A DNA stretch of 16,619 nt from Elusimicrobiota bacterium (GTDB taxonomy: Bacteria > Elusimicrobiota > Elusimicrobia > UBA1565): contig JBDREN010000135.1 in the NCBI GenBank assembly GCA_043819795.1, positions 1-16,619 on the forward strand. Reading direction: 5' to 3'. Of this stretch, positions 1-9,247 are shown in pieces. The position numbers and the translations under genes were made by a program. The notes under the pieces were generated by a model. That model did not search any database. It was not told the origin of the DNA and saw only the letters and a program-made list of their open reading frames with translations. Each line of letters opens with the position of its first letter. Position 1 is the first letter of the stretch.

Positions 1-217
1 GCACTCCAGCCATGAACGCCAGCACGATTTCCACGGGATCAGTCGCGTTCGGTGAGGTAAGTTTGAACGGCAATGCCTTGCGCAGGGACTGCTCCAGCCC
101 TATCTGCCGGGCCAGGCCGCCGAACAAGATAAGCCCTCCCCGGGGCGTTACGGCCTTCTCCGTAAACGTAACCCCTATTCCCTTCCCACCCAATAATGAT
201 GTAGCTTGATATGCCAT
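1..217 (-). CDS. IS1380-family (DDE) transposase, N-terminal 72 codons; runs off the window edge
   Basis: Manual translation from ATG at 217 gives MAYQATSLLGGKGIGVTFTEKAVTPRGGLILFGGLARQIGLEQSLRKALPFKLTSPNATDPVEIVLAFMAGV with no stop. An AGGAGG RBS lies just upstream. The FT.K.VTP.GGL..F motif followed by an SPN..DP..IV..FM segment resembles IS1380-family transposase N-termini (recognised from memory, not searched). Confidence 0.7.
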   Translation of the reverse strand, partial: MAYQATSLLGGKGIGVTFTEKAVTPRGGLILFGGLARQIGLEQSLRKALPFKLTSPNATDPVEIVLAFMAGV

Positions 218-279
218 CGTCTCGCCCTCCTGTGAGGTGCTAGCTCAACAGGAGTTTAGCGAGGCGGTGGCCTCTTTTT
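213..279. promoter_or_regulatory. Long imperfect hairpin covering the transposase RBS and start codon; T-tract follows on the + strand
   Basis: gccatcgtctcgc (213-225) pairs with gcgaggcggtggc (259-271) at 11/13 Watson-Crick positions. ctcctgt (227-233) pairs perfectly with acaggag (248-254). TTTTT follows at 275-279. Confidence 0.6.
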
Positions 280-312
280 GAAGCCTTTCAGCGGGCCAAC
301 TGAACTTTTCGG

Positions 313-337
313 GTTAACAAAGTTAACACCTGACGCC
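313..337. repeat. Copy 1 (25 bp, truncated by the IS) of the GGCGTCAGGTGTTAACTTTGTTAAC repeat
   Basis: gttaacaaagttaacacctgacgcc is identical to 4584-4608 and is the reverse complement of 4512-4536. Confidence 0.95.
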
Positions 338-3300
338 TTTTCTCTTTAGGTAGTGCAGGTGCGGGATCAGCACGCCGTTGGGATCGCCGGTGCCGTCGTA
401 GAAGATGTCGATGATGGGGATCCCGAAGTCCTCCTGCATCTTCCGGAAGATCGAGGCAGAGACCACCCCCGGGCAGCAGAACATCGGGTTGATGTGGACG
501 ATCGCGTCCACGCCGCCTTGCTTGATGTAGTAGAGCGCCCTTCCGATGTTGATGGACGTCTCCCCGGCGATGTAGTGCCGGATCTTGTAGTCCTCCATCA
601 AGCGCATGCAGTCGGCGAAGTCGGGCTCGAGCTGGTCGCCGATGATGTCGGCGGCTATCCTCTCGAAGCGGTGCTCGATCTTCCGGAGCGTGCGGTAGTG
701 CCGCGGGTCGTGGCCGTGGAGCCTGATATCCGCGTCGTAGAACTGGAACGGGTACTCGGTCATGGAGGAGACGGCCAGCTCGCCGCCGAGGTCCTCCACC
801 AAGGACTGCAGCCTCTGGTTGACCACCGAGCTGTACTTGACGTATAGGTCCCCGATCAGGGCTATCCGGGGTTTTCGCCCACCGGACTCGTCGCGGGGGA
901 CGCTCCGGAACATGTCCGCCACCGCGGCGAGGGCCGCGCGCAGGTCCTTGCCGCTCAGGATGGCCTCGCTGAGGGTCTCCTTCGCCTCCTGGGACACCCT
1001 GTCCGTGGCGCCCTTGTCGCGCTCGTAGGGCTTGATGCGGTTGTACATCTTGTAGATGATGCAGCTCACCATGAACGACTCGAACATGCGCACCGCCACG
1101 GGGTGGGGCAGGATCTCGCCCGGGGCCATGCTGTTGATCAGGCCGATCTTGAGCCCCTTGAGCCCCGCGGCCTCGAAGGCCATGTCCGAGAAGATGGGGT
1201 ACTGGGGCAGGTTGCAGGCCACGCACACGGTCGGCATGTAGAAGAAGGTCTTGCGGGGGTCGAGCCCTTCCGAGCGCACCTTCTCGATCACGCTCCCGGC
1301 GATGGAGACCAGCGGCATGCATTCGCCGCCGCTGGCGTATTTGTATCCGGTGCTCAAAGACTTCTCGTCGGCGTCGAGCGTCAGGGCCCGGTAGCCGGCG
1401 CGCCTGAAGCAGTCGGCCCAGAGCCGGCTGATGAGGTCGTCGAGGTGGAGGACCAGCACCGTGTCGCCCTTCTCCAAGCGGTCGTCGCGGGCCCGGGTCG
1501 GACGGACGGGCTCCGCGGGCTTGCGCCTGCCCAGATGGTTCTCGAAGGATCGCATCGCGGCCTCGATGCGAGTGGTGTAGCCCACGTCCGAGCTGTGCTC
1601 GTCGAGCTGCAGGACCAGGAAGGGCTTGCCGTAGTGCGTCATGATGTCCTTGACGTAGCTGATGAGGAAGGAATCCGGGCTACACCGGAAGCAGCTCAGG
1701 TAGACGACGAAGAGGTCGTCGGACTCGGCGCAGTACTCGGCGACCTTGACGATGGTCTTGCCGTAGTGCCAGTGCATGCGCTCGTAGAATTTGTTGGCAT
1801 AGACCGGCTGGAACCCCTCGAGGTCGAGCTCGTCCTGCCAGAAGAGCTCGGCCCCGAGCTCCTCGAGCTTCCGGGGCAGGCCGAGGTTCATGATGGGATC
1901 GAAGGCCACGTAAGGCCTCCCCATCAGGACGATCCGCGGCCCGCCCGGGCGGCGCCGGCCCGCCTCGAGGGCGGCGTGCGTCGCCTTCAGGTTCCTGCGA
2001 GCCGCGAGGAAATCCTCGTAGGCCGCGTGGAAGGCCCGCCCGACCTCCTCGAGGCCGAGGTCCGGGAATCTCCGCGCCAGCTCCTGGTGCAGCTCGCGCG
2101 CGATCTCGTCGAGATCGTTCTCGTTGAACAGGATGAGGGGAGAGAGGATCTTGTCCTCGAGGTCCATCGACGTGAGCTTGCTCAGGATGGAGGGCAGGTA
2201 CTGTGAGTAGTAGCAGAAATACGCGTCCCGGGTCTTCTTTTTGAAGGAAGCCGCTCCTTCGCGCTCCCGGTCATGCTCGTTGACGATCGCGGGGTAGAAG
2301 ATATGCTGGGCCCCCCGGTCCAGGAGCTGCTTGACGTATCCGTGGGCGGCCACCATGGGCGCGCAGAAATCCGAGTTCACGGCCTTCTTGCCCTCGGCCA
2401 GGGCCTTGCGCGAAGGGGTGGACGTGATCACCTTGAAGCCCAGCCGGGACAGGAAATCGTGCCAGAGCGGGGAATACTCCACGTTGTAGAGCCCGTGGGG
2501 AAGCCCGATGGCGACGTCCGCTCTCGACTTGCGGGCGCCCTCCGGCATGGGCGCCGCGCCGGGCGGCCTCCGATCGGGCCCCGGGGTGCGGAAGGGCGGC
2601 CGGAGCGCCTCGATGTAGCGCTTGGCGGGCGCGCTCCGCTCGACCTTTTTCGGACGCCTGTCCGAGTACTCCCGGCCGCATTTCATCCCCCACCCGGTCT
2701 TGACGCTTTCTTTGGCCACCACCGTCAAGAGGCAGTGATTGGCGCAGCGCTCGCAGATCTCCTCCTCGGTCCTCACGTCCCGGACATCCCATACGAAGCG
2801 GGAGCGCGTGAGGCCCGCCTCCCGGCAGAGAAGCGCCATGCCCAAGGCGCCGGTGAGATGACAGTAGGGCGAGACATGGATGGGCCGGTCCAGGAGCTGC
2901 TCGAAAGAAGCGACCAGGGCCGCGTTCCTGGCCGTCGCGCCCTGGAATACCACGTGCTCGCCGATCGGGCTGTGGCCGACCACCTTGGCCACGTAGTTGT
3001 CCCGCACCGAGTTGAGCACGGCCGCCGCCAGAGCCCGCTTGGACCAGCCCTCCCTCATGAGGACGTTCAGGTCCCGCTCCATGTACACCGTGCACCGGTC
3101 GCTGGTGAATGGGGCCTCGGCGGAGAGCGCCATGTCGGAGAAGTCCTTGAGGCTCACCCCCAGCCGCTTCGCCTGCTCCTCGATGAAGCTCCCCGTCCCG
3201 GCCGCGCACACGTAGTTCATCGCCGAGTAGTAGACGTCCCCGTCGCGTATGCGCGTGAACTTGGAGTCCTGCCCCCCGATCTCGACGATGGTGTCCGCCT

Positions 3301-4498
3301 CGGGGGTGAGGAACGTCGCCGCCTTGGCGTGGGCCGTGATCTCGTTGACCTCCATGTCCGCGCCGAAGAGCTCGTGGATCATCTTCCTGCCCGAGCCCGT
3401 GGTCCCCACCCCCCGCAGCGCCGGCCGCCTCCTTTCGAATACGGAGTCCATGGCTCCGATGAGCCTCTGCACCGCGGCGAACGGCTCGCCCCGGGTGGCG
3501 GTGTAGAAGCCCCCGGCGATCTCCCCGCCCGCGCTCATGACCAAAGTCTTTGTGCTCGTTGAGCCTATGTCGATGCCGAGATAAACCCCCTCCCCCAAAG
3601 ACGCGCGCTTCTTGGGAAGGAAGACCTCCACGTCCCCTTCCGGAAAGATGGAGAACTCCCGGAAATCCGGGTATTTCGTCAGCCGCATCTCCAGGCGCGG
3701 CCGCACGCTCCGGCGCGCCCGGACGCGCTTGGTCAGGGCGTCGAAATCGAAGGACGGCTCTTCGGCGAGCAGGGCCGCTCCCACCGCGCCCGCGACGTGG
3801 GCATGCTCCGGCACGACCACGCGCTTACCCAGGGTGCTCTCGATCGTGCCCACGATCTTGGGATTGAGCGAGACCCCGCCGACCACCGCCACGGGCTCGG
3901 TCATCTCCCGGCCCTTCACGAGGGCGTCCAGAACGTTGCGCGCGATGCCCTCGCATAGGCCCGCGCATATCGCGTCGAGCGAATAGCCCTCCTGCATGGC
4001 GTGGATGATGTCCGTCTTGGCGAAGACGGCGCAGCGGGTCGCGATGACGGGAGTCTTGCCCCGGAAGGCGGCGGCCCTGCGGGCGAGCTCGGCCGCGGAG
4101 ATCTCGAGGCGCTCGGCCTGCTGCTCGATGAAAGAGCCGGTCCCCGAGGCGCACGGAGAGTTCACCGAATGCTCCCGGTACTCGCCACCCTCGTCCAGGA
4201 CGATAATCGAGAAGGTCTCCCCCCCGATGGAGAACAGGTTCCGGCACCCGGGAAGCAGGAACCTCACCCCCTCGATGGTGGCGAGCGTGGCGTCCAGTAC
4301 CGCCTGGCCCGTGTCCTTGAGGCTCCCACACACGCCGATCCTGTCGTAGCGATCGGATCCCGGCTTCCCGATGGCCTCGGCGATCGCGCCCGCGATGTCG
4401 CCCTTGTGCTCCCGGTGATGCGTGTGGAGGACCCGGCCGGCCTCGAGGACGGCGCATCCCAGGTAGAGGGAGCCGATGTCGATGCCTATACGCCTCAT
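323..4498 (-). CDS. Large fused CoA-substrate-specific enzyme activase (two BadF/BadG/BcrA/BcrD-type ATPase domains) plus 2-hydroxyacyl-CoA dehydratase-like (DUF2229-type) domains; FeS protein
   Basis: 1391 aa. Two ASKHA-type modules (IGIDIGS...CASGTGSF...CAVF and LGIDIGSTST...EIGGQDSK...CAAGTGSF...CTVY), a CERCANHC linker, and dehydratase-like Cys motifs (FCAP, CFRCSPD, ECMP, FCCPG). Confidence 0.88.
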   Translation of the reverse strand: MRRIGIDIGSLYLGCAVLEAGRVLHTHHREHKGDIAGAIAEAIGKPGSDRYDRIGVCGSLKDTGQAVLDATLATIEGVRFLLPGCRNLFSIGGETFSIIVLDEGGEYREHSVNSPCASGTGSFIEQQAERLEISAAELARRAAAFRGKTPVIATRCAVFAKTDIIHAMQEGYSLDAICAGLCEGIARNVLDALVKGREMTEPVAVVGGVSLNPKIVGTIESTLGKRVVVPEHAHVAGAVGAALLAEEPSFDFDALTKRVRARRSVRPRLEMRLTKYPDFREFSIFPEGDVEVFLPKKRASLGEGVYLGIDIGSTSTKTLVMSAGGEIAGGFYTATRGEPFAAVQRLIGAMDSVFERRRPALRGVGTTGSGRKMIHELFGADMEVNEITAHAKAATFLTPEADTIVEIGGQDSKFTRIRDGDVYYSAMNYVCAAGTGSFIEEQAKRLGVSLKDFSDMALSAEAPFTSDRCTVYMERDLNVLMREGWSKRALAAAVLNSVRDNYVAKVVGHSPIGEHVVFQGATARNAALVASFEQLLDRPIHVSPYCHLTGALGMALLCREAGLTRSRFVWDVRDVRTEEEICERCANHCLLTVVAKESVKTGWGMKCGREYSDRRPKKVERSAPAKRYIEALRPPFRTPGPDRRPPGAAPMPEGARKSRADVAIGLPHGLYNVEYSPLWHDFLSRLGFKVITSTPSRKALAEGKKAVNSDFCAPMVAAHGYVKQLLDRGAQHIFYPAIVNEHDREREGAASFKKKTRDAYFCYYSQYLPSILSKLTSMDLEDKILSPLILFNENDLDEIARELHQELARRFPDLGLEEVGRAFHAAYEDFLAARRNLKATHAALEAGRRRPGGPRIVLMGRPYVAFDPIMNLGLPRKLEELGAELFWQDELDLEGFQPVYANKFYERMHWHYGKTIVKVAEYCAESDDLFVVYLSCFRCSPDSFLISYVKDIMTHYGKPFLVLQLDEHSSDVGYTTRIEAAMRSFENHLGRRKPAEPVRPTRARDDRLEKGDTVLVLHLDDLISRLWADCFRRAGYRALTLDADEKSLSTGYKYASGGECMPLVSIAGSVIEKVRSEGLDPRKTFFYMPTVCVACNLPQYPIFSDMAFEAAGLKGLKIGLINSMAPGEILPHPVAVRMFESFMVSCIIYKMYNRIKPYERDKGATDRVSQEAKETLSEAILSGKDLRAALAAVADMFRSVPRDESGGRKPRIALIGDLYVKYSSVVNQRLQSLVEDLGGELAVSSMTEYPFQFYDADIRLHGHDPRHYRTLRKIEHRFERIAADIIGDQLEPDFADCMRLMEDYKIRHYIAGETSINIGRALYYIKQGGVDAIVHINPMFCCPGVVSASIFRKMQEDFGIPIIDIFYDGTGDPNGVLIPHLHYLKRKGVRC

Positions 4499-4511
4499 AA
4501 AACGGTTAACC

Positions 4512-4608
4512 GGCGTCAGGTGTTAACTTTGTTAACTAACTTCAGTCACCGGGAAGTATTCCTGCTTCTCCTCTCCCCCATTAGTTAACAAAGTTAACAC
4601 CTGACGCC
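4512..4608. repeat. Perfect 28-bp inverted repeat pair (4512-4539 and 4581-4608) with a 41-bp spacer; REPIN/MITE-like unit
   Basis: ggcgtcaggtgttaactttgttaactaa and ttagttaacaaagttaacacctgacgcc are exact reverse complements. Each arm has two GTTAAC hexamers 3 bp apart. Confidence 0.95.
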
Positions 4609-5420
4609 TATAGCGCTAGCAGGCTCACGGCCATGACGGCCATGCCCGCGATCAGTCCGTATACCGCCAGGTGATGCTCGCCGTACTTGTGCGCGGCCGG
4701 CAGCAGCTCGTCGAACGAGACGTAGACCATGATCCCGGCCACTCCCGCGAACAAGAAACCGAACACCGCGTCGCTCAGGAAGGGCGCGAAAAGAAGATAG
4801 CCCACGAGCGCGCCCGCGGGCTCCGCCAGCCCCGAGGCGAAGGAATACAGGAAAGCTTTCCTGCGGCTGCCCGTGGAATAATACACCGGCACCGAGACGC
4901 TGATGCCTTCCGGGATGTTGTGGATGGCGATGGCCAGCGCGATGGGCAGGCCCGCGGCCGGGCTCTTCAGGGCGGCGACGAACGTGGCCAGGCCTTCGGG
5001 GAAATTATGGATGGCGATCGCCACAGCGGAGAACACGCCCATGCGCAGGAGCGCCCGGTCGCCCTTGGGGCTTCGCCCCGCGGCCATCTCCTCCAGCTTG
5101 CGGGCCTCATGGGGGTTCTCAAAGGACGGGACGAACCGGTCGATCACGGCGGTCAAAAAGATCCCAGCGAAGAACGCGCCCGTGGCCGCCCAGCCGCCCG
5201 CGGCCTCCCCCCATGCGGCGCCCAGCCGCTCGCCGGCCGCGCCGACCATCTCCACCAGCGAGATATAGACCATCACGCCGGCCGAGAATCCCAGCGACAC
5301 CGCCAACAGCTTGGTGTTCGTGCGCTTCGCGAAGAGGGCGATGGCGCTCCCGATGCCGGTGGACAGGCCGGCCAGCAAGGTCAGTCCGAACGCGAAGGCT
5401 ACGTGGTCGCTTTCCATCAT
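4608..5420 (-). CDS. zupT: ZIP-family divalent metal (Zn/Fe/Mn) transporter ZupT
   Basis: 270-aa hydrophobic protein with TLLAGLSTGIG, LGFSAGVM, AIAIHNFPEG, AIAIHNIPEG, SGLAEP and DELLP motifs. Confidence 0.95.
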   Translation of the reverse strand: MMESDHVAFAFGLTLLAGLSTGIGSAIALFAKRTNTKLLAVSLGFSAGVMVYISLVEMVGAAGERLGAAWGEAAGGWAATGAFFAGIFLTAVIDRFVPSFENPHEARKLEEMAAGRSPKGDRALLRMGVFSAVAIAIHNFPEGLATFVAALKSPAAGLPIALAIAIHNIPEGISVSVPVYYSTGSRRKAFLYSFASGLAEPAGALVGYLLFAPFLSDAVFGFLFAGVAGIMVYVSFDELLPAAHKYGEHHLAVYGLIAGMAVMAVSLLAL

Positions 5421-5443: not shown

Positions 5444-6475
5444 TCAATAGCTCATGGAGTCCAGCTTGACCTTGCCCCGGAACACCCGGTAGATATAGGC
5501 CGTGTAGACCAGCACCAGCGGCATGCCGATCAGGACCATCGTCAGCATGATCCTCAGCGTCTTCGCCGATGACGCGGCGTTGTAGATCGTCAGGCTGTGC
5601 GCCGGATCCGGGCTGGAAAGCACCATGTTGGGGAACATGCCGACGCCGAACAGAAGCATCAGGCACACGATCGTCGCGCACGACGCGAGGAACGCCCGGA
5701 GGTCGCGCCCGGCCCGCAGCTCGAACGGGATGTCCGCCATGGCCAGCACGAGGATGAGCGGGATCGCGAACAGCAGCGGCCGCTCATCGAAGGGACGGAT
5801 CATGTGCGGCAGCCCCAGCCAGGTCGCGAAGGTCAGCAGGACATAGAGCGCGGCGAACACGACGAACGCGCCCAGGGCCGATCGCCGGGCGCTGGCCTGG
5901 AGGTCACCTTCGGCCTTGAGGTTGAGATAGAGCGCCCCGTGCATGGCGAACAGCGCCGCGGTGCTCAGGCCCACCACGAGCGCGTACGGATTTAGAAGGC
6001 CGAGGAAGGTCCCGGCGAACTCGCCTTCGGCGTCGAGCGGGATGCCGCGGGCGATGTTGCCCAGCGCCACGCCCAAGAGCAGGGCCGCCGCGAGGCTGGC
6101 CGCGCTGAAGCAGAAGTCCCAGGCCTTGCGCCACAACGACCAGTCCAGCTTGCCCCGGAACTCGATGGAGACCGCCCGGAAGATGAGGGCGAACAGGAGC
6201 AGCATGATCGCGAGGTAGAACCCGGAGAACACCGTGCCGTACACCCTCGGGAACGCGGCGAACAGCGCCCCGCCCCCGGCTAGGAGCCAGACCTCGTTGC
6301 CGTCCCAGACGGGTCCGATCGCGTTGATCGCGATGCGCCGATCGTCGTCGGACTTCGCGAAGAGATGCACGATCCCCACGCCGAGGTCGAACCCGTCGAG
6401 CAGGGCGTAGCCCGTGAACAGGACCCCGATGACCGCGAACCAGACCGTGTTCAGATCCACGCAGCAGCAGCTCAT
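5444..6475 (-). CDS. cydB: Cytochrome bd ubiquinol oxidase subunit II
   Basis: LDGFDLGVG, IGPVWDGNEVWL, GALFAAFP and C-terminal YRVFRGKV motifs. ATGA overlap with cydA. Confidence 0.96.
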   Translation of the reverse strand: MSCCCVDLNTVWFAVIGVLFTGYALLDGFDLGVGIVHLFAKSDDDRRIAINAIGPVWDGNEVWLLAGGGALFAAFPRVYGTVFSGFYLAIMLLLFALIFRAVSIEFRGKLDWSLWRKAWDFCFSAASLAAALLLGVALGNIARGIPLDAEGEFAGTFLGLLNPYALVVGLSTAALFAMHGALYLNLKAEGDLQASARRSALGAFVVFAALYVLLTFATWLGLPHMIRPFDERPLLFAIPLILVLAMADIPFELRAGRDLRAFLASCATIVCLMLLFGVGMFPNMVLSSPDPAHSLTIYNAASSAKTLRIMLTMVLIGMPLVLVYTAYIYRVFRGKVKLDSMSY

Positions 6476-7824
6476 GCCGCCACCCCCGCCGGCTCAAGGT
6501 CCTCTTCCTCCGGCCCGTGGATGATCTCCTTGCCCAGCAGGAAGACGAACAGAAGAAACAGCAGGGCGTAGACGAGGCCGAACAAGGCTATGGACGCGAG
6601 CACCTGGGACGCGGGCACGACCTTCGAGAAGGCCTCGCTGGTGCGCAGCACGCCGTAGACGACCCAGGGCTGGCGCCCGACCTCGGCCGAGATCCAGCCC
6701 ATCTGATTGGCGATCTGAGGCCCGAGGAAGGACAGCAAGAACACGACCTGCAGCCACGTCTGCTGGAACAGCGTGCCCCGCCACCAAAAGAACACGCCGG
6801 CCAGGCTGAGACCGATGAGCCCCATGCCGATGCCGACCATCGCGTGGTAGGCCTGGAACACGAGATTGACCGGCGGCCGGTCCTCGGGAGGAAAGGCCTT
6901 GAGCCCCGTGACCGGCTTCTTGAAGTCGAAATGGACCAAGAAGCTCAGAAAGCCCGGAAGCCCGGGAGCGAACCGCACGCGCTCCGCCTTCTCATCCACC
7001 CAGCCGAACATGTACAGGTCGCCCGGAGCGGAAGCCTCGTAGTGCCCCTCGAAAGCCGCGAGCTTGGCCGGCTGGTTCTTGGCCACGCCGATCGCGCTCG
7101 TGTGGCCGGTCCCCAGCTGGCCCAGCGAGGAGGCGAGAGCCAGGCAGAGGGCCGGCTTCATCGACGCCTTGGCGAACTCGGTATGCCACCTCAGGAGCAC
7201 GTAGAAGGCGCTGATGCTGATCACTAGGAACGCGCCCGCCTGCCACGCGCCGCAAAACACGTGGCTGACGCGGTCGAAGGTCGAGGGGTTCAAGACCGCG
7301 GCCCAGAAGCCAGTGAGCTCCGCGCGCGCGGCCAGCCCCTCGCCCACGATGCGGAAGCCCGCGGGAGTCTGCTGCCAGGAGTTGGCCACCACGATCCACA
7401 ACGCGCTCAGATGCGCGCCCAAGGCAGCCATCACAAACGAGAATAATCGCGTCCGGGGGCCGATCCTGTCCCAGCCGAGCACGAGCAGCCCCACGAAGGC
7501 GGACTCCATGAAGAACGCCGTGATCACCTCGGCCGCGAGCGGGCCGCCGAAGACGTCCCCGACGTAGCGCGAGTACGCGGCCCAGTTCGTCCCGAACTGG
7601 AACTCCATCACGATCCCCGTCGCCACCCCCATGACGAAGATCAAGCCGAATACCTTGAGCCAGAACCGCGCCGTCCTCTCGTATACGGGCTTTCCCGTCC
7701 ACATCGACAGCGCCTGCCAGGCCACCAGGAGCACTCCCAGGCCGATGCTCATCGGAGGGAAGATGTAGTGAAAGGCGATCGTGAACGCGAATTGGACGCG
7801 CGAGAGCAGCTCGACGTCAAGCAT
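6472..7824 (-). CDS. cydA: Cytochrome bd ubiquinol oxidase subunit I (short Q-loop type)
   Basis: RVQFAFTIAFHYIF (heme His), GVATGIVMEFQFGTNW, ANSWQQTP, QPAKLAAFEG and EVGRQPW motifs. The 450-aa length fits a short Q-loop enzyme. Confidence 0.97.
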   Translation of the reverse strand: MLDVELLSRVQFAFTIAFHYIFPPMSIGLGVLLVAWQALSMWTGKPVYERTARFWLKVFGLIFVMGVATGIVMEFQFGTNWAAYSRYVGDVFGGPLAAEVITAFFMESAFVGLLVLGWDRIGPRTRLFSFVMAALGAHLSALWIVVANSWQQTPAGFRIVGEGLAARAELTGFWAAVLNPSTFDRVSHVFCGAWQAGAFLVISISAFYVLLRWHTEFAKASMKPALCLALASSLGQLGTGHTSAIGVAKNQPAKLAAFEGHYEASAPGDLYMFGWVDEKAERVRFAPGLPGFLSFLVHFDFKKPVTGLKAFPPEDRPPVNLVFQAYHAMVGIGMGLIGLSLAGVFFWWRGTLFQQTWLQVVFLLSFLGPQIANQMGWISAEVGRQPWVVYGVLRTSEAFSKVVPASQVLASIALFGLVYALLFLLFVFLLGKEIIHGPEEEDLEPAGVAA

Positions 7825-7868: not shown

Positions 7869-8243
7869 CTACGCCTTCCACAGGCCGTGGAGGTTGCAGT
7901 ATTCCCGAGCGGAGACCGATTCCGCCTTGATGTCGAAGACGGCCTCCGGGGCCTCCCCCGGCTTCAGGTGCCGGCGGTACACCTTCCCGTCGGAGATGAG
8001 CTCGACGAACTCGATGTAGTGCTTCTCTTCCATGGGATGGGCGACGCTCCCCACCTTGACATGGAAGCCGGCGTCGGTCTTCTCGATCACGGGGACATGC
8101 TTCTCCTTGGCCGCGTCCACCGTGTTCTCTTCCAGCAGGCTCATCTCCTGTCCGCAGCAGACGAGCGTTCCGCCCGCCGCGTGCAGCACCTCGACGATGT
8201 TCCCGCATCGCGAGCACTTATAGACCTCGTTCCTCTGCGTCAT
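7869..8243 (-). CDS. dfx: Desulfoferrodoxin (2Fe superoxide reductase), 124 aa
   Basis: The true start is ATG at 8243 ([10 protein letters not shown]), after a GGAGGAG RBS. Centre I ligands CSRC...LVCC; centre II ligands [14 protein letters not shown] and YCNLHGLW. Confidence 0.95.
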
Positions 8244-8280
8244 ATGGTTCTCCTCCGCTCCGACCGATATCCGACGCGCC

Positions 8281-8802
8281 TCACACGAGCTTCTTCGCCG
8301 CCTCCAGCGCCGCGGCGTAGTCCGGCTCGTTGGTGACCTCGTTGACCAGCTGCACGTACCGCACGACCCCTTCACGGTCCACGACGAATACCGCCCGGGC
8401 CAGCAGCCTCAGCTCCTTGATGAGCAACCCATAGGCGCCGCCGAACGCCGCGTCGCGGTGGTCCGAAAGGGTGACGACCCGGGTCGCGCCGGCCACTCCG
8501 CACCAGCGTTTCTGGGCGAAGGGCAGGTCCATGCTCACCGTCAACACGGCGACATCCTCGCCCAGCCTGGAAGCCTCCTCGTTGAACCTCTTGGTCTGCA
8601 AGTCGCAGACGGGCGTGTCCAGAGACGGCACGCTCGAGATGATCACGACCTTGCCGCGAAACGATGAAAGCTTGACCTCCGCGAGGCTGTTGTCCAGGGC
8701 GACGAAGTCCGGCGCCGCGTCCCCCGCCATGACCTCGCCCCCGATCAACGTCAGAGGATTGCCCTTCATGGTGACGACTCCAGCTTTCTCCTGTACCGCC
8801 AT
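8281..8802 (-). CDS. tpx: Thiol peroxidase Tpx (atypical 2-Cys peroxiredoxin)
   Basis: [17 protein letters not shown] (peroxidatic Cys), [12 protein letters not shown] (resolving Cys), LLARAVFV and EPDY motifs. GGGAGG RBS. Confidence 0.96.
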
Positions 8803-8827
8803 AGTCCCTCCCTGGTCAGAGTATCCG

Positions 8828-9247
8828 CTAACAGGCGGTGGAAACGCTCCGCCGGCCCGCCATGCAGGGTCCGCACACGCCCGTCAACTCCAGCCGGTGC
8901 CCGAGCACCTCGAAACCGTACACGCCCCTTATCGAGCCCTCAAGATCGGGCCGGCGTTCCAGCTCGATGTCCGCGACGCGTCCGCACCGCAGACAGCGGA
9001 TATGGTAGTGGTCTTTGAGGTTGCCGTCAAACCGCTTCTGGCTGCCGGCCATCTCGAGCTTGCGTATCGCCCCTTCCCGGCAAAGAAGCTCCAGGTTGCG
9101 ATAGACGGTGCTCAGACTGATCCGCGGCAGCCTCTTGCGGGCCGCCTTGTACAGCTCGTCGGCGGTCGGATGCGTGAAAACCTTTCTCAGCTCCTCGAGG
9201 ATGATCCGTCTCTGCCGGGTCATCCGGGGCTTGCTCTCAGCGGGCAT
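8828..9247 (-). CDS. perR: Fur-family peroxide-sensing repressor PerR
   Basis: HPTAD, TVYRNL, RFD, HYH and VADI supply the His/Asp/His/His/Asp regulatory metal ligand set of PerR (Asp rather than the Glu of Fur at the last site). Two CxxC motifs (CLRC, CGPC). It heads an oxidative-stress operon. Confidence 0.85.
   Translation of the reverse strand: MPAESKPRMTRQRRIILEELRKVFTHPTADELYKAARKRLPRISLSTVYRNLELLCREGAIRKLEMAGSQKRFDGNLKDHYHIRCLRCGRVADIELERRPDLEGSIRGVYGFEVLGHRLELTGVCGPCMAGRRSVSTAC

Follow-up and report, generated by a model that had tools for sequence, protein, structure and literature searches.

TIR-family doublets on both sides of an activase gene in an Elusimicrobiota genome: probable TIRYT-spread insertions near stop codons

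Organization of the activase locus

The stretch of DNA analysed here (the window, 16,619 nucleotides) is contig C135 of a 4.99-Mb Elusimicrobiota genome, which comprises 241 contigs and is about 90% complete. Its left part is dominated by the gene of an activase/dehydratase-like fusion protein (ORF 4498-323) with two BcrAD_BadFG domains, a DUF2229 domain and an HGD-D-like region according to Pfam. An oxidative-stress operon is located directly ahead of this gene: a Fur-family regulator, a peroxiredoxin, a desulfoferrodoxin, cytochrome bd and zupT are encoded in one run (window 7869-9247 and 5444-7824). The activase itself is presumably oxygen-sensitive. The features discussed below are compiled in Table 1.

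Table 1. Features of the activase locus and mobile elements found in arms of the repeat family
Feature	Position	Strand	Remarks
End of IS1380-family insertion sequence (IS), total 1,545 bp	1..313	-	14-bp TIR at 300-313; transposase ATG at 217, runs onto C130
TTAA target-site duplication of the IS1380 insertion	314..317		TTAA on either side of the inserted IS
Copy 1, right arm of split doublet D1	313..337	-	G313 is the last IS base; gives the activase its stop codon
Activase/dehydratase-like fusion gene, 1391 aa	323..4498	-	Pfam domains; C-terminal four residues and stop from the arm
Intact doublet D2	4512..4608		28-bp perfect inverted arms, unique 41-nt spacer
zupT, ZIP zinc transporter	4608..5420	-	Last in the perR/fur-tpx-dfx-cydAB run; TAG ends on the first D2 base
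Mobile elements in TIR arms	C120, C143, C202; C26, C42, C111, C141; C219:29535-31046; C6:3862 and C108:3666		

An identical 25-mer occurs three times in the window (313-337, minus; 4512-4536, plus; 4584-4608, minus), and a sequence search confirmed the positions, orientations and distances to gene ends that a first-pass annotation had given for these copies. Extended to 28 nt (4512-4539 and 4581-4608), copies 2 and 3 complement each other across a 41-nt spacer and together make up one 97-bp inverted doublet, D2 (28+41+28). Copy 1 belongs to another 97-bp doublet, D1, as its right arm; the left arm of D1 is found at C130:22097. Window bases 1-141 are the last 141 bases of contig C130 (a 141-nt exact overlap with matching ends), and D1 was joined across this assembly overlap, where both junctions match exactly. 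In-silico excision of the intervening IS together with one TTAA regenerates a perfect 28+41+28 doublet from copy 1 and the C130 arm. The C130 part of the IS ORF matches PF13701 (DDE_Tnp_1_4, E 5e-45), and with this transposase, its 14-bp TIRs and the TTAA duplication the element that splits D1 belongs to the IS1380 family, whose members produce target duplications of 4-5 bp.

The gene order thus reads ferredoxin gene (C130:21267-22070), split D1, activase, D2 and zupT. The outer tips of arms 1 and 2 are both directed at the activase, which places the gene outside both doublets; only with the outermost arms of the two doublets counted as ends would it be enclosed. The first-pass annotation had described copies 1 and 2 as an inverted pair enclosing one 4.2-kb gene: they do flank it in inverted orientation, but they do not enclose it. 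That annotation had not recognized that 1-313 is the end of an IS1380-family element, that copy 1 is one arm of a doublet cut in two, or that copies 1 and 2 turn their tips towards the gene.

Both zupT and the activase end in a repeat arm, as had been noted from the first reading. The activase ATG is separated from copy 2 by 13 nt. The stop codon of the gene, TAA at 323-325, is part of copy 1, and this copy appends the residues G-V-R-C to the protein; this C-terminus was found in none of the 119 activase homologues listed. zupT takes the G of its TAG from the first base of copy 3. In-silico removal of D2 restores the zupT TAG. If D1 is cleanly excised, the activase frame meets no stop for 117 codons, although a TAT three codons past the junction could be a decayed stop, one substitution away. 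At 14 other junctions where a gene reads into an element, removal of the element returned a stop within six codons in 9 cases and failed to do so in 5. On the coding strand, D2 RNA folds at -64.7 kcal/mol (z -8.1) into a hairpin that ends 13 nt ahead of the activase ATG. Rfam gave no match for the doublet, and a terminator scan flagged nothing at the repeats. The D2 hairpin would likely act on the zupT-activase message through pausing, cleavage or stability.

A dispersed repeat family near stop codons

The window arm consists of a 10-nt tip and two 9-nt AT-rich boxes. Throughout the genome, we found 13 exact copies and 38 with up to five mismatches, and a weight matrix gave 52 matches against none in the reversed genome; the repetition of this arm is therefore not a product of chance. 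After merging, the window-arm family comprises 33 loci. Among 50 arms (45 identified by pattern and 5 added by hand, 3 of the 50 being of sister types), 31 have a stop as the closest gene end on their outer side, 17 have a start and 2 have no gene end there. The tips of 16 of these 50 arms fall between -25 and +5 nt from a stop codon, compared to a null mean of 0.5 (maximum 4 in 2000), with gene ends taken from a home-made gene caller and a null drawn from intergenic positions only. Count and stop-codon statistics thus bear out what the first-pass annotation had held as its alternative, a genome-wide REP-like family at gene ends. A reading of the arm as a PerR/Fur operator was rejected, as the arm is scattered at gene 3' ends.

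The window arm is one of about six sister arm families in this genome. A generic scan for doublets of all sister families yielded 48, versus 1 in the reversed genome; 23 of the 48 are positioned within -30 to +10 of a stop, although of all intergenic DNA only 4.6% is at most 10 nt away from one. A target duplication of at least 3 nt was seen at none of the 48 doublets. Spacers of the window family measure 17-21, 41 or 56-60 nt and are mostly unique, and they match nothing in the rest of the genome except in two cases, C90 (TIRtron ends) and the nested doublet at C224. Spacers as captured DNA were ruled out on these grounds. In the C224 case (C224:1622-2210), a sister-family doublet is nested in a window-family doublet, the other arm of which is cut by a broken IS200/IS605-type element.

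Tip-to-tip lengths of the doublets in this genome peak near 75, 85, 96, 108 and 116 bp, a periodicity of ~10.5 bp (36 lineages, R 0.50, smooth-null p 6e-4). The pooled relatives gave R 0.11 and p 0.09, based on 183 doublets from 17 relatives among those listed and after 16 entries had been dropped by eye (1 chance match, 1 dubious, 2 nested outer pairs and 12 composites from genome G052). Lengths of 67 and 78 in the relative G023 follow another phase than those of this genome.

Family loci are clustered, with six neighbor pairs within 5 kb against 0.92 expected (P 1.5e-4). Of these pairs, three (C6, C224 and the activase locus) have the form doublet-gene(s)-doublet; the other three consist of TIR ends at C48 and C90, and two of the latter enclose ORF6N genes. 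At C48:9330-11243 (within the larger locus L058, C48:9330-13325), the TIR ends hold two ORF6N ORFs in the place of a transposase, along with an ORF for a membrane protein and a TIRYT helix-turn-helix (HTH) remnant (GC 60.5%, with codon percentiles of 4-6 for the two called genes), and a third arm comes after a symporter gene. ORF6N is also encountered inside the arm at C90:54244. The C48 locus is a candidate for a cargo-carrying TIRtron.

Other mobile elements have cut 11 of the 33 family loci, including IS1380 at D1. All four ends found of one intruding element lie at the same tip position, and four of eight ends of another lie in window-type arms. One arm intruder is a 1.5-kb IS, and one contains an ORF whose sequence reads like a group II intron reverse transcriptase.

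TIRYT enzymes and related repeat systems

TIRYTs are known but little-studied tyrosine transposases, and the literature on them, as represented by PMC6006769 and PMC3733652, is computational. As described by Di Nocera, De Gregorio & Rocco (2013, PMC3733652), TIRtrons are Y1 transposase genes flanked by long inverted repeats that recur as moderately abundant singles and dimers; TIRYT genomes contain several such genes with different TIRs, and a GGGGWSAS motif is present in only some TIRs. In the genome studied here, Pfam Y1_Tnp gave seven matches: two are fragments of one broken IS200-type gene, and the others are five long genes. Inverted repeats flank four of these five; the repeats start with GG[CGT]GTCAGGC, followed by tandem boxes of 8-9 bp that are specific to the family, and each of the four genes has its own dispersed doublet family. 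The HUH motif and the catalytic tyrosine are kept in 33 of 34 TIRYT proteins, including the four TIR-flanked ones of this genome. One doublet, at C128, is an internally deleted form of a TIRtron, and the 60-nt spacer at C90 joins window-type right-end sequence to left-end sequence as seen at C48.

A TIRYT profile, built from 34 proteins, matched inside two window-type arms, at C170:4065 (E 1e-7; 39 codons, then the contig end) and at C48:9330 (E 3.5e-4). These C-terminal remnants (39 aa and about 48 aa, respectively) share the helix G[RK]SRAGV and align to the C-terminus of the C140 protein. Both are one-sided, and the assembly contains no complete TIRYT gene flanked by the window arm in its exact form. 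The first-pass annotation had proposed to look for an HUH transposase flanked by the motif; the four sister families bracket intact genes of this kind, and the window arm was found with remnants of one. The two profile matches and the C90 spacer junction indicate, at the level of sequence, that the cognate enzyme of the window family is a TIRYT that was not assembled.

The TIRYT remnants and a paralogue at C72 also have the C-terminal, Bac_DnaA_C/HTH_23-like HTH extension, with individual matches below the cut-off (C48 remnant versus HTH_23, E 0.003; C72 paralogue versus Bac_DnaA_C, E 2e-6). This paralogue (C72:12718-13635, L002/L152; homologues L153-L166) is without perfect TIRs; of 17 family genomes, 15 have a single match to it, at 59-72% identity in the 14 relatives. 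None of the 15 proteins keeps both HUH histidines, and many of the genes have a TIR-tip-like motif upstream. Judging by these sequences, the paralogue has likely been domesticated as a DNA-binding protein that lacks catalytic activity.

The window family resembles the TIRtrons described in PMC3733652 in that its doublets are dispersed as singles and dimers at moderate copy number (33 loci), in a genome with several TIRYTs that have different TIRs. The tip is also near GGGGWSAS: that of the window arm, GGCGTCAG, agrees in 7 of 8 positions, and the C102 type, GGGGTCAG, is an exact match. Position 3 of the tip is C in the window family, unlike in the published tip, and only part of the family's own enzyme gene is assembled. 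Across 22 TIRtrons the tip varies as GG[CGT]GTCAG. Similarity of tips follows similarity of cores, a relation confounded by descent (partial r 0.30, p 0.006), and covariation of boxes with the recognition helix reached a partial r of 0.12 (p 0.065, n=22), with higher values for other protein windows. The tip-plus-tandem-box layout and the stop statistics have no counterpart in the passages of PMC3733652 consulted here; the supplementary TIR list of that study may include close relatives of the window family.

TIRYTs have been equated with TnpA(Y1) subclass 2.1 by Quentin et al. (2018, PMC6006769), and subclass 2.1/2.1.2 of that scheme corresponds to RAYT group 1 of Bertels et al. (2017, PMC5581495), which, among the true RAYT groups, is said there to resemble ISs most. 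The proteins found here resemble this class in their length of ~280-300 aa with a Y1 domain, in the C-terminal Bac_DnaA_C/HTH-like domain, in the lack of REP hairpins beside the gene and in that each genome has several diverged copies. Quentin et al. (PMC6006769) do not decide whether the TIR is recognized by the HTH. A preprint (10.1101/2020.03.09.984088) linked subclass 2.1 enzymes to lanthipeptide clusters, with the causal claim withdrawn.

REPs are reported to form dimers with spacers of equal length and unlike sequence, and to have termini that supply stop codons (PMC3733652); nesting of elements is known from REPINs (Bertels & Rainey 2011, PMC3116915), and REP sequences serve as IS targets (Tobes & Pareja 2006, PMC1525189). 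As far as these accounts go, the doublets studied here share the hairpin-forming inverted layout, the different spacers of the same length, the stop-supplying termini and the nesting. They differ from REPs and REPINs in arms without a GTAG foot and without a stable GC-rich palindrome per arm, and in tens rather than hundreds of copies. No GTAG was found; CGTC is present, 4 nt away from a 6-bp AT-rich stem, and this stem is lost in variant arms, which keep both boxes as direct repeats, unlike REPs, and lose self-pairing. The interruption of 11 of 33 loci recalls the targeting of REPs by ISs as described by Tobes & Pareja, but here several unrelated intruders occupy the same arm, with a family assigned for IS1380 and the C224 IS200-type pseudogene. 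Our literature search on translation effects of REPs at stop codons and on Elusimicrobiota repeats found nothing directly relevant.

TIRYT homologues occur in 53 of 61 genomes, this one included, and TIRs were found at 21 of 29 TIRYT loci of relatives. Doublets are present in 38 of 60 relatives, with 0-2 control matches per genome. The window's own arm is present in none of the 60 relatives, none of which belongs to the same genus, and the exact arm was found at no locus in metagenome contigs; a degenerate version matched two loci in one Elusimicrobiota genome and one metagenome locus, all of sister type. The relative G001 has a related family of 15 arms, none of which has a TIRYT at a distance of up to 1.5 kb. 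In another relative (L086, G007:C26:20719-24540), a TIRYT gene has a full 61-bp palindromic doublet on each side. Among the contigs of four runs, one run, which may be the source sample, contained short identical pieces, including one (143-457) across the IS/arm/activase junction; none of these contigs spans D2, and the sole repeat joint listed is a depth-4 record in X2 with other sequence between the arm pieces.

Eight regions of relatives were selected for two nearby doublets, and gene contents were scanned in seven. Genes between the paired doublets of these chosen regions include aspS with a Crp regulator, a thiolase, a PilZ gene, a Rieske oxygenase and a CAAX protease. A BrnT toxin and a CopG antitoxin gene lie between two near-identical direct doublets in G002 (C111:46052-46828; L144:1253-2029), which is the best cassette-like case seen.

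Independent insertions or a mobile activase

The activase locus is probably the product of two separate 97-bp TIR-family doublets, spread by TIRYT, which landed independently near stop codons, and of a later IS1380 insertion into D1. The doublets would represent internally deleted TIRtrons, as the C128 and C90 cases suggest, and would be moved as non-autonomous elements by TIRYT, a transposase of the HUH/Y1 type. From the anatomy of the arms we infer that the Y1 domain nicks at the conserved 10-nt tip, while the C-terminal HTH would read the family-specific 8-9-bp boxes. Insertion would proceed without duplication, be tolerated mostly just after stops and be locally biased, which could give rise to the gene-repeat-gene-repeat spacing. 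At this locus, doublets would have inserted independently at the stop codons of zupT and the activase, before the IS1380 element split D1. Since the doublet family is scattered genome-wide beside stops and was likely spread by TIRYT, the activase between the doublets is most likely a bystander and not a mobile cassette.

Alternatively, TIRYT could act on the two outermost tips, at C130:22097 and at window 4608, and move doublet, activase and doublet as one composite, or recombination between doublets could have swapped the activase in behind zupT. The clustering of family loci, the common 97-bp class of D1 and D2 and the missing activase stop after removal of D1 would fit such a transfer, as would the ORF6N ORFs of low codon score between the C48 TIR ends, the L086 TIRYT gene that itself sits between two doublets, and the bracketed toxin-antitoxin pair of G002. 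The activase is furthermore patchy, with any match in 14 of 61 genomes, and one 64% match is labelled Spirochaetes. Read from the sequence, removal of the whole unit would likewise restore the zupT TAG, but removal of D2 alone does so equally well. The spacers of D1 and D2 have only 17 of 41 bases in common and are thus unlike those of one recent composite insertion; the activase has native-like codon use (71st percentile of long genes), a GC content of about 66% and no second copy in the genome, and housekeeping genes are likewise bracketed by sister doublets in relatives. Two activase homologues of relatives, at 59% and 55%, have no arm-like motif at their gene ends, and one of them begins directly after the stop of another gene. 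We therefore consider a transferred composite, and with it the repeat-delimited activase insertion of the first-pass annotation, unlikely. zupT is present in 5 of 16 family relatives, none of which has the activase or other window genes within 1.5 kb of it; these relatives are too distant to be counted as an empty site.

In its widest form, this alternative makes TIRYT doublets the working ends of a gene-capture system, in which the HTH would grip the tandem boxes on double-stranded, helically phased ends and the activase would have been joined to the peroxide-stress operon in this way, its stop codon being replaced by the repeat. It draws on the locus clustering, the C48 ORF6N genes, the bracketed toxin-antitoxin pair, the unrestorable junctions and the 10.5-bp periodicity, which was not replicated in the pooled relatives, and we regard it as improbable.

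A reading of the doublets as ordinary MITEs that depend on a DDE transposase family would agree with their dispersed, non-coding nature and 28-bp terminal inverted repeats; the absence of target duplications of 3 nt or more at all 48 doublets, tips that match those flanking HUH/Y1 genes and the TIRYT remnants inside arms largely refute this reading, which is very improbable. Hardly credible at all is an invertible or excisable activase switch with copies 1/2 or 1/3 as recombinase sites, proposed initially in view of identical inverted and direct copies around one gene: about 50 such arms are dispersed in the genome, and each of these three has its partner in its own doublet (copy 1 in the C130 arm); neither element contains the gene, the IS interrupts copy 1, and the 15 window proteins scanned include no recombinase, as the first reading had already stated.

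The independent insertion of TIRYT-spread doublets, which we favor, extends a known repeat and transposase class to a lineage rich in it, with about six families in this genome and doublets in 38 of 60 relatives. If doublets did move cargo genes, this would constitute an undescribed HUH-based route of gene capture, for which the odds are low. The matched enzyme/TIR pairs of this genome provide material for a first specificity test. TIR repeats of this kind rewrite the C-termini of proteins and attract other mobile elements.
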